Source of the DNA: Mycoplasma mycoides subsp. capri
GTDB taxonomy: Bacteria > Bacillota_I > Bacilli_A > Mycoplasmatales > Mycoplasmataceae
Length of the DNA stretch: 32,000 nt
Direction of reading: 5' to 3'
Assembly (NCBI RefSeq): GCF_018389705.1
Contig: NZ_CP065581.1
Location: 570,001 to 602,000, forward strand
Part shown: one piece after another, positions 30,439 through 31,156 of the stretch
Layout of the letters: each line of letters opens with the position of its first letter
Position numbering within the stretch: position 1 is the first letter of the stretch
The notes under the pieces: generated by a model
What the model saw: only the letters and a program-made list of their open reading frames with translations
What the model was told of the DNA's origin: nothing
Databases searched by the model: none
Position numbers and translations under genes: made by a program

Positions 30439-30583
30439 TTAAATTTTGCTTTTTTCTAATCTGGCTGATTTATCAACTATATCAAATAATTTGGTTTTTA
30501 TACTATCATAATCTTTTTTAGTTAATAAACTATTTATTTCATTTATTCTAGTTTTTAATTCTTGTTCAAATTCATTAGATATC
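30439..30583 (-). other. Out-of-frame 3' remnant of lipoprotein D (restored by a -1 change in the A8 tract)
   Basis: In the frame reached by deleting one A from the A8 run, this stretch reads ISNEFEQELKTRINEINSLLTKKDYDSIKTKLFDIVDKSARLEKSKI*. That is colinear with the C-terminus of member C (ISKELEEKLKSETDEINNLLSKMQYETIKTKLFDIVDKTAELEKNIKQ*). Confidence 0.75.
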
Positions 30584-31156
30584 TTTTTTTTCAAGTAATT
30601 CTCTAGTAGTGTCTAAAATTAACTCTTTGTTATCTTTTGTTATTTTATCTAATAATTCTTTAAGTTTTTTTGTTTCATTATTATTAATATTATTATCTAA
30701 ACTATCACTAAATAAAAGTGTTATCTCTGTTTTGACATCATCAAATTTAGATTCATCAAATAATTTTGAAATTTTATTTTCTAAATTAGTTAATTGTTCA
30801 AGTGATTGCTTTTGACTAGATCTTTGTAAAAACTTAGAAATAAGACTTGCTGAATATCCTAAAATTTTTGAACTTTGCTTTGTATCTAAAACTTCTTTTA
30901 CTTCTTTTTTAATTTTTTCAGCAAAGTCATCTATTTTTTCATTTTTTTCTTCTTTAGTAATAGGTTGATCTTTTGGTAAATCTTTTTCACTTGGGTTTAA
31001 GTTATTGTTAGGTGTTTCTGTTTCTTTTTTATTTGAATCAGTTTTATTATCTTTTTCTTTTATTTTTTGATTAGTATTATCTGTTTTACATGAAACAACA
31101 ATTAGTGAAGAACTTAAAGCTGTTATAAAACTTAATAATGTTAAAATTTTTTTCAT
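30575..31156 (-). CDS. Helical lipoprotein, family member D (193 aa as encoded; C-terminally truncated relative to member C)
   Basis: MKKILTLLSFITALSSSLIVVS|CKTDNTNQKIKEKDNK is identical to C over the first 38 aa. The frame ends ...RELLEKKDI-TAA immediately after an A8 homopolymer. Confidence 0.75.
   Translation of the reverse strand: MKKILTLLSFITALSSSLIVVSCKTDNTNQKIKEKDNKTDSNKKETETPNNNLNPSEKDLPKDQPITKEEKNEKIDDFAEKIKKEVKEVLDTKQSSKILGYSASLISKFLQRSSQKQSLEQLTNLENKISKLFDESKFDDVKTEITLLFSDSLDNNINNNETKKLKELLDKITKDNKELILDTTRELLEKKDI
30584..30591 (-). repeat. Homopolymeric tract (A8 on the coding strand, T8 on the plus strand) at the frameshift point of lipoprotein D
   Basis: The plus strand reads atc-tttttttt-caag. 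The coding strand reads CTT GAA AAA AAA GAT ATC TAA. Paralog C has a shorter A6 run (GGC CAA AAA ATA TCT) at the equivalent position. Confidence 0.9.
31043..31156 (-). repeat. Duplicated 5' cassette (copy in lipoprotein D)
   Basis: By eye, identical to 30248..30361 at an offset of 795 nt. Confidence 0.85.

Follow-up and report, generated by a model that had tools for sequence, protein, structure and literature searches.

Slippage tracts in mycoplasma lipoprotein genes

The surface lipoprotein Vaa of Mycoplasma hominis (Zhang & Wise 1997, as summarised in PMC524362) is switched by slipped-strand mispairing in a poly-A tract, A8 being the ON form and A7 or A9 the OFF forms, at a frequency of 1e-3 to 1e-4. 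In the same species, vmp-2 differs from vmp-3 by an extra A in a 3' poly-A tract, which creates a premature stop beyond which the homology continues (PMC524362). In the Mycoplasma mycoides cluster, the Vmm/Vmc lipoproteins are described in PMC3053259 as having a promoter (TA)n switch of ten or more units and tandem repeat domains. Table 3 of the same paper lists, for M. mycoides subsp. mycoides PG1, lipoprotein genes that are split by frameshifts relative to their sister-strain orthologs and that are read as signs of decay. Here, we report on lipoprotein gene D of Mycoplasma mycoides subsp. capri, one of four neighbouring paralogs (D, C, B and A), which is truncated by a frameshift at a run of eight adenines (A8). 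The gene lies in a stretch of 32,000 nucleotides (nt) of contig NZ_CP065581.1 (positions 570,001 to 602,000), hereafter termed the window; all positions below are window coordinates unless they refer to a locus fetched from another strain, and open reading frames (ORFs) were called under genetic codes 11 and 4. The source strain is apparently the type strain PG3 of this subspecies, as judged from a database match.

Gene D resembles Vaa in having a coding poly-A tract of about eight nucleotides in a mycoplasma surface lipoprotein, where the gain or loss of one A sets the frame. The Vaa tract, however, is located in the 5' part of the gene, is conserved among isolates and has been shown experimentally to switch (PMC524362), whereas the D tract is located at 80% of the gene, is strain-specific and would have A8 as its OFF form. 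The anatomy of vmp-2 is the same as that of D, although vmp-2 belongs to an unrelated protein family and has a tract of nine A; it too was described by sequence comparison only. With Vmm/Vmc, as presented in PMC3053259, D has in common the organism group, the clustering of paralogous lipoprotein genes, a shared 5' module and a strong divergence between strains. No (TA)n or (AT)n repeat of at least five units was found near genes A-D, no tandem repeat was reported within 30439-31156, and the Vmc-like signal-peptide model NCBIfam NF045726 gave 7.0 bits for D and 11.5 bits for C, below its cut-off of 19.3. A Vmm/Vmc-type switch at D was rejected, since the (TA)n repeat is absent. Like the PG1 genes, D is a lipoprotein gene split in two by a frameshift; the PG1 catalogue concerns another subspecies, and Table 3 of PMC3053259 mentions neither the D locus nor its allele. 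The frameshift in D is an ordinary instance of a well-known event.

The frameshift in gene D

Gene D occupies 30575-31156 on the minus strand, and is read in the ORF lists as a protein of 193 amino acids (aa), WP_017697846.1, that carries a lipobox (MKKILTLLSFITALSSSLIVVSC) and ends with ...LLEKKDI*. Its coding strand reads TTA CTT GAA AAA AAA GAT ATC TAA. Direct reading and alignment with paralog C and with orthologs place the A8 homopolymer (T8 on the plus strand; 30584-30591) at codons 189-191 of 238, the premature TAA (30575-30577) two codons past it and, out of frame, a tail of 47 codons (ISNEF...SKI; 30442-30582) that is closed by a TAA at 30439-30441, these features (the tail with its stop spanning 30439-30582) being all on the minus strand. 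The truncation by a frameshift at A8 thus reads as the initial annotation had described it. With one A fewer, the frame becomes LLEKKISNEF..., is joined to the 47 tail codons and yields a restored protein of 238 aa (junction peptide, ELLEKKISNEFEQELK; tail peptide, KTKLFDIVDKSARLEK). Simulated tract lengths gave full-length products for A7 (238 aa) and A10 (239 aa), and short ones for A6 (199 aa), A8 (193 aa) and A9 (200 aa), confirming that the deletion of one A or the addition of two rejoins the tail. The frame of D is therefore set by the length of the tract, as is expected of a phase-variable gene. The annotation had counted 48 further codons, and had given 241 aa for the ON form and 193 aa for the short form. 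The tail does continue in frame and the short form has 193 aa, but the tail comprises 47 codons plus a stop and the restored form has 238 aa, because the stop had been included among the 48 codons and the residues DI of the short form give way to those of the tail.

At the matching point, paralog C has an A6 run (CAA AAA ATA; 29782-29787, plus-strand numbering), through which its frame continues. As had been claimed, the C and D tails align without gaps (80% nucleotide identity), and the C-D copy spacing is 801 nt before the tract and 800 nt beyond it, a difference that corresponds to the single extra base. When compared with full-length orthologs of other strains, whose tails are in frame, the D tail shows a nucleotide identity of 94-97%; the restored D, taken over its entire length, shares 81-89% of its residues with the M. 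mycoides orthologs of 237-241 aa, the tails matching residue for residue. On these alignments, the likeness of the D tail to the ortholog tails cannot be due to chance. With 193 aa, where 12 full-length homologs have 237-244, D has the disrupted ORF that characterises a recent pseudogene. Read from a TTG, the tail ORF is 51 aa long and is present in the database as WP_017697845.1.

The initial annotation had left room for a sequencing indel, in which case the true tract would be A7 and gene D would be intact. The PG3 complete genome CP065581 (goat, Turkey, 1950) was assembled with Flye from PacBio reads and polished solely with Arrow, and an earlier PG3 project combined 454 and Illumina reads; PacBio and 454 are both prone to homopolymer length errors, which lends such an artefact some plausibility. 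However, the PacBio coverage was at least 231x, and exact copies of both the 193-aa product (WP_017697846.1) and the 51-aa tail ORF (WP_017697845.1) are present on three contigs of the database; the neighbouring genes A and B carry EXU, QVK and WP accessions, that is to say accessions of separate submissions. We infer that the EXU accessions belong to the 454 and Illumina project. Furthermore, A or T runs with a length of exactly eight number 14 in the window, and 13 of them fall within genes, among which are efp (run at 22449-22456) and a rarA-like gene (17506-17513); the reading frame is kept in 12 of these 13 and broken in D alone, and none of the 57 runs of seven is accompanied by a frameshift. 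Similarly, 1,315 base pairs (bp) of adjacent housekeeping sequence, compared in seven strain loci, are free of indels despite the presence of 6-7 runs of at least six A per strain. The identical products in separate submissions and the other coding A8 runs that remain in frame show that the frameshift is a real mutation; a sequencing error is most improbable.

The tract was then compared with those of six distinct ortholog alleles, none of which has A8. The ortholog of GM12 and JCVI-syn1.0 reads CTT GGC AAA AAG ATA (A5), those of Wi8079 and of the JAUYZA01 draft read CTT GGT AAA AAG ATA (A5), and those of M-18, M-5 and G1313.94 read CTT GGT AAA AAA ATA (A7, in frame). By this comparison, the A8 tract is shown to be strain-specific and not a conserved switch. 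The initial annotation had held that a tract fixed at A8 in deep population data and in related strains, together with a tail accumulating stops, would refute switching; the related strains have A5 or an in-frame A7, and the tail has no stops. The passage from G-GY-AAAAA-G to G-AAAAAAAA-G requires one or two substitutions and one inserted A. A total of 24 substitutions, including three tract positions, are private to the PG3 allele of D: 14 of them lie in the 130 nt upstream of the tract, whereas the first 437 nt account for 3 and the 144-nt tail for 4. This places the tract at the edge of a divergent patch, defined by comparison with the orthologs, that covers the 130 nt directly 5' of A8 (30592-30721, minus strand) and is 81-84% identical to them, identity rising to 91-95% upstream of the patch and to 94-97% in the tail. 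Though no donor for this patch was found among the sampled paralogs and strains, it may be a recombination or gene-conversion tract from an unsampled donor. A profile scan based on the protein alignment and a scan for a conserved 24-nt tail pattern, both run on genome contigs, gave no match, so that the DNA comparison stays within M. mycoides.

The tail of D has neither stops nor indels, the secondary lesions that would mark an old, decaying pseudogene. Its four private changes consist of three synonymous ones (TCA, GCC and ATT) and a conservative K-to-R replacement at a site where the orthologs have K or Q, whereas about three in four changes are expected to be non-synonymous under neutrality. 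Most of these changes, therefore, would either predate the frameshift or reflect a tail that is still under selection. The clean tail shows the lesion to be recent, and the very recent inactivation that the initial annotation had mentioned as an alternative fits at least as well as a switch does.

As to the effect of the truncation, an AlphaFold model was built from 17 family members (mean predicted local distance difference test score, pLDDT, of 74). Residues 1-62 are predicted to be disordered and the remainder to be helical, mostly with a pLDDT above 85. The break falls inside a predicted helix (174-212) and a second one (216-236) is wholly lost, the tail being made of half of the former and the whole of the latter (pLDDT 89-98); the two helices rank among the parts of the model that are predicted with the highest confidence. 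The tail also holds the most conserved motif of the family, KTKLFDIVDK, and the family-invariant tail residues K220, K222, L223, F224, D225, K229, A231 and K235. Since the 47 missing residues show the strongest conservation in the family and make up one helix and half of another in the model, the truncated protein is probably destabilised or crippled, with loss of function. Pfam and NCBIfam searches of the D family returned sub-threshold noise only and no curated family, and a fold search of the PDB gave no match at E <=0.001, only generic helical bundles. A profile search of 1.84 billion representatives yielded only 39 clusters, which makes the family a narrow one; many of them are short fragments, which were not used as evidence, because TGA codons called under the wrong code are inseparable from real frameshifts.

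Origin of the A8 tract

The cluster is also damaged in other strains. Paralog C of strain M-5 has undergone an A6 to A5 frameshift (at about 2693 of the fetched locus), which is the sole difference from strain M-18 over 3.7 kb; both strains (Croatia, 1988) have PacBio-only assemblies, in which a residual consensus error is possible. Paralog C contains, in addition, an in-frame A8 (CTA AAA AAA ATT; 30091-30098) that is conserved in PG3, GM12, M-18 and M-5, and that has become A7 in the JAUYZA01 draft (at about 2560 of the fetched locus), thereby splitting the gene into ORFs of 91 and 72 aa. Being conserved across strains, this tract of C is, on the present alignments, a better candidate for a contingency tract than that of D. 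In CP065584, an insertion sequence (IS) element (3501-5627 of the fetched locus), whose 426-aa transposase has HTH_21 and rve domains, splits the second paralog into fragments of 136 and 157 aa; a frameshift was thus rejected as the cause of this truncation. A homopolymer slip was likewise rejected for the two truncated proteins of LS483504 and LS483510, two viable laboratory derivatives of GM12 in which the D ortholog has suffered deletions (105 bp at the 3' end and about 250 bp internally, at about 2080-2170 and about 1530 of the fetched loci); these deletions seem to fall outside the five regions deliberately deleted in the related engineered strain, and are apparently spontaneous. Together, the paralog frameshifts, the IS insertion and the deletions argue that the cluster is dispensable and fast-evolving, slips of ±1 A being the commonest lesion. 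A protein search with paralog C missed close C orthologs and fragments, and truncated alleles are not countable from it.

From these data, we propose that the frameshift in D is a recent slippage lesion, private to this lineage, that struck a redundant gene and could in principle revert, and not a dedicated conserved switch; we give this explanation a probability of about 0.6. In the PG3 lineage, the codons GGY AAA AAG (Gly-Lys-Lys, A5) would have become a long A run, which replication slippage would then have lengthened by one A to the present A8, so that the frame is shifted by +1 and closed by a stop after two more codons. The truncated protein would still be lipid-anchored but devoid of its last 47 residues, and the lesion would be tolerated because D belongs to a set of redundant paralogs that evolve fast and can be dispensed with. 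As A8 is an intrinsically unstable run, reversion to A7 can occur and would restore the protein; the tract itself would be an accident of lysine-rich coding in a genome of 22% GC rather than a conserved contingency element. Slippage as the mutational event and relaxed selection are what we infer from these comparisons; slippage is the obvious mechanism at a homopolymer, as the initial annotation had assumed, and the change from A8 to A7 would indeed restore the protein. Several points weigh against this proposal. The A8 coding tract of the M. hominis surface lipoprotein Vaa switches at 1e-3 to 1e-4 per generation, and by analogy a high-frequency reversion is possible in D. Three independent frameshifts of ±1 A in one small family, among about ten strains and in one case between near-identical strains, are to be expected of contingency behaviour too. 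The public copies of the PG3 allele of D apparently represent one strain, and consensus assemblies hide minority tract lengths. Finally, the clean tail is equally compatible with selection acting on a gene that is periodically ON.

These points bear on slipped-strand phase variation, in which an A7 ON form (238 aa) would alternate with A8 or A9 OFF forms, in combination with the tracts of the paralogs, the sequenced culture being mostly OFF. The dependence of the frame on tract length and the intact tail are in line with it, as are the precedents of M. hominis (the A8 switching of Vaa and the 3' poly-A truncation of vmp-2), the finding that different paralogs are off by ±1 A in different strains, and a density of A7+ runs that is 2-3 times the local level in these genes. 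This density (4.7-5.6 runs of at least A7 per kb in genes A, C and D, as compared to 0.4-3.6 in other genes) is, however, explained by the lysine-rich composition of A, C and D (17-21% lysine, versus 7-13% in other genes). Nor is the A8 of D unusually long: it is one of the 14 runs of eight in the window (32 kb, 78% AT), where A/T runs number 161 for length 6, 57 for length 7 and none for length 9 or more, and it does not exceed those of efp and other housekeeping genes. Extrapolation of the decay in run length predicted about 4-5 runs of at least nine, which suggests that a ceiling at eight may be set by tract instability. The initial annotation had seen the anatomy of the tract as the signature of phase variation, an argument that loses its force with a tract that is specific to one strain (the orthologs having A5 or an in-frame A7), that lies 80% into the gene, leaving the OFF product with 80% of the protein length, and that is A8 in all public copies, namely the three contigs, no A6, A7, A9 or A10 product being found in a collection of 15 billion proteins. 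The same cluster also contains irreversible lesions (the IS insertion and the deletions). We hold phase variation of D to be plausible, but less likely than a recent lesion. A broader form of the idea, which we regard as rather doubtful, is that the four genes constitute an unrecognised contingency family that would rely on ±1 slippage at coding A6-A8 tracts instead of a (TA)n promoter switch; strains or subpopulations would then show differing combinations of full-length and truncated paralogs, and the OFF state could be leaky owing to transcriptional slippage.

Full-length D could also be made from the A8 template itself, either by transcriptional slippage (one A fewer or two more) or by +1 or -2 ribosomal frameshifting, the tail being then under selection. 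RNA polymerase is known to slip on long A runs, and the intact tail with its mostly synonymous private changes agrees with such recoding, but A8 stands at the low end for efficient transcriptional slippage, and the orthologs are single uninterrupted ORFs of 237-244 aa in which the slippery site is not conserved, unlike that of a programmed frameshift. Moreover, the shift favoured by the A AAA AAA heptamer is one of -1, by which the ribosome would enter a dead-end frame of 200 aa instead of the tail. Rescue by a -1 ribosomal frameshift was consequently rejected as it gives the wrong frame, and a rescue by recoding needs a transcript with one A fewer. Although a preprint reports that repeat constructs of an M. 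bovis gene show leaky expression despite being frameshifted, we consider recoding very unlikely. Equally hard to credit is a selected truncation, in which the 193-aa form would be functional, for instance as an antigenic escape variant devoid of the conserved C-terminal epitope, and the tail would be a leftover. The truncated protein does keep its N-terminal anchor and 80% of its length with only two foreign residues, and nowhere is the gene more variable than in the segment before the tract; yet the break interrupts, about midway, a helix that is predicted with confidence and costs the protein its most conserved segment, natural truncations at the matching point are absent from the other strains, and the allele apparently comes from a single lineage.

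For annotation, D of PG3 is best read as one frameshifted and potentially revertible lipoprotein gene instead of two hypothetical proteins (WP_017697846 and WP_017697845). Beyond this, a recent slippage lesion has little significance. Were switching true, it would add a second mechanism of surface variation, based on a coding tract, to the M. mycoides cluster, with a bearing on the choice of antigens for vaccines and serology in goat mycoplasmosis, although the mechanism would still be one long known in other mycoplasmas.

The lipoprotein cluster and its neighbourhood

The window has a GC content of 21.9%, and its ORFs could be closed solely with TGA read as Trp (genetic code 4), which marks the DNA as that of a mollicute. 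All genes of the cluster and its flanks are on the minus strand, in the order deoxynucleoside kinase gene (31285-31923), D, C, B, A and mnmA (26812-27966), and this order, with four lipoprotein genes between the kinase gene and mnmA, recurs in all the related strains that were fetched. Homologs of D were found in M. mycoides (mostly subsp. capri) and M. feriruminatoris only. Paralogs C (29636-30361; 241 aa, intact under code 4), B (28945-29625; 226 aa, intact) and A (28046-28906; 286 aa, intact) were taken from the ORF lists, the exact proteins of B and A being present in the database. The intergenic gaps are 77 nt for D-C, 10 nt for C-B and 38 nt for B-A, and the sole terminator-like hairpin of the D-C-B-A cluster stands just 3' of gene A (28015-28032, minus strand; one found as compared to 0.2 expected). 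This single hairpin and the very short C-B gap suggest that D-C-B-A could be read as one transcription unit.

As a tandem duplicate, C and D have in common a 5' module that is 92% identical (31016-31194 in D and 30221-30399 in C, minus strand) and spans the upstream region, the ribosome-binding site, the signal peptide with its lipobox and the first 38 or so codons. By direct reading, the signal peptide and lipobox cysteine of D are MKKILTLLSFITALSSSLIVVS-C (residues 1-23); C23 is invariant in 17 of 17 homologs, and database sources call these homologs lipoproteins, in agreement with D being a bacterial lipoprotein. In the C ortholog of LS483501, an ambiguous base N occurs at about 2930 of the fetched locus (AAGNAAGG). 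In gene A, the N-terminal low-complexity linker, rich in Asn and Lys, contains an imperfect tandem repeat (28727-28838) with a period of 36 nt and 3.2 copies.

A second cluster of paralogous lipoprotein genes is present elsewhere in the window, on the plus strand (9814-16874), and comprises three large tandem genes encoding proteins of 819, 759 and 741 aa. The 759- and 741-aa lipoproteins have similar N-termini (MKKL...SCxxNNSNT.NNLVIPTTNK).
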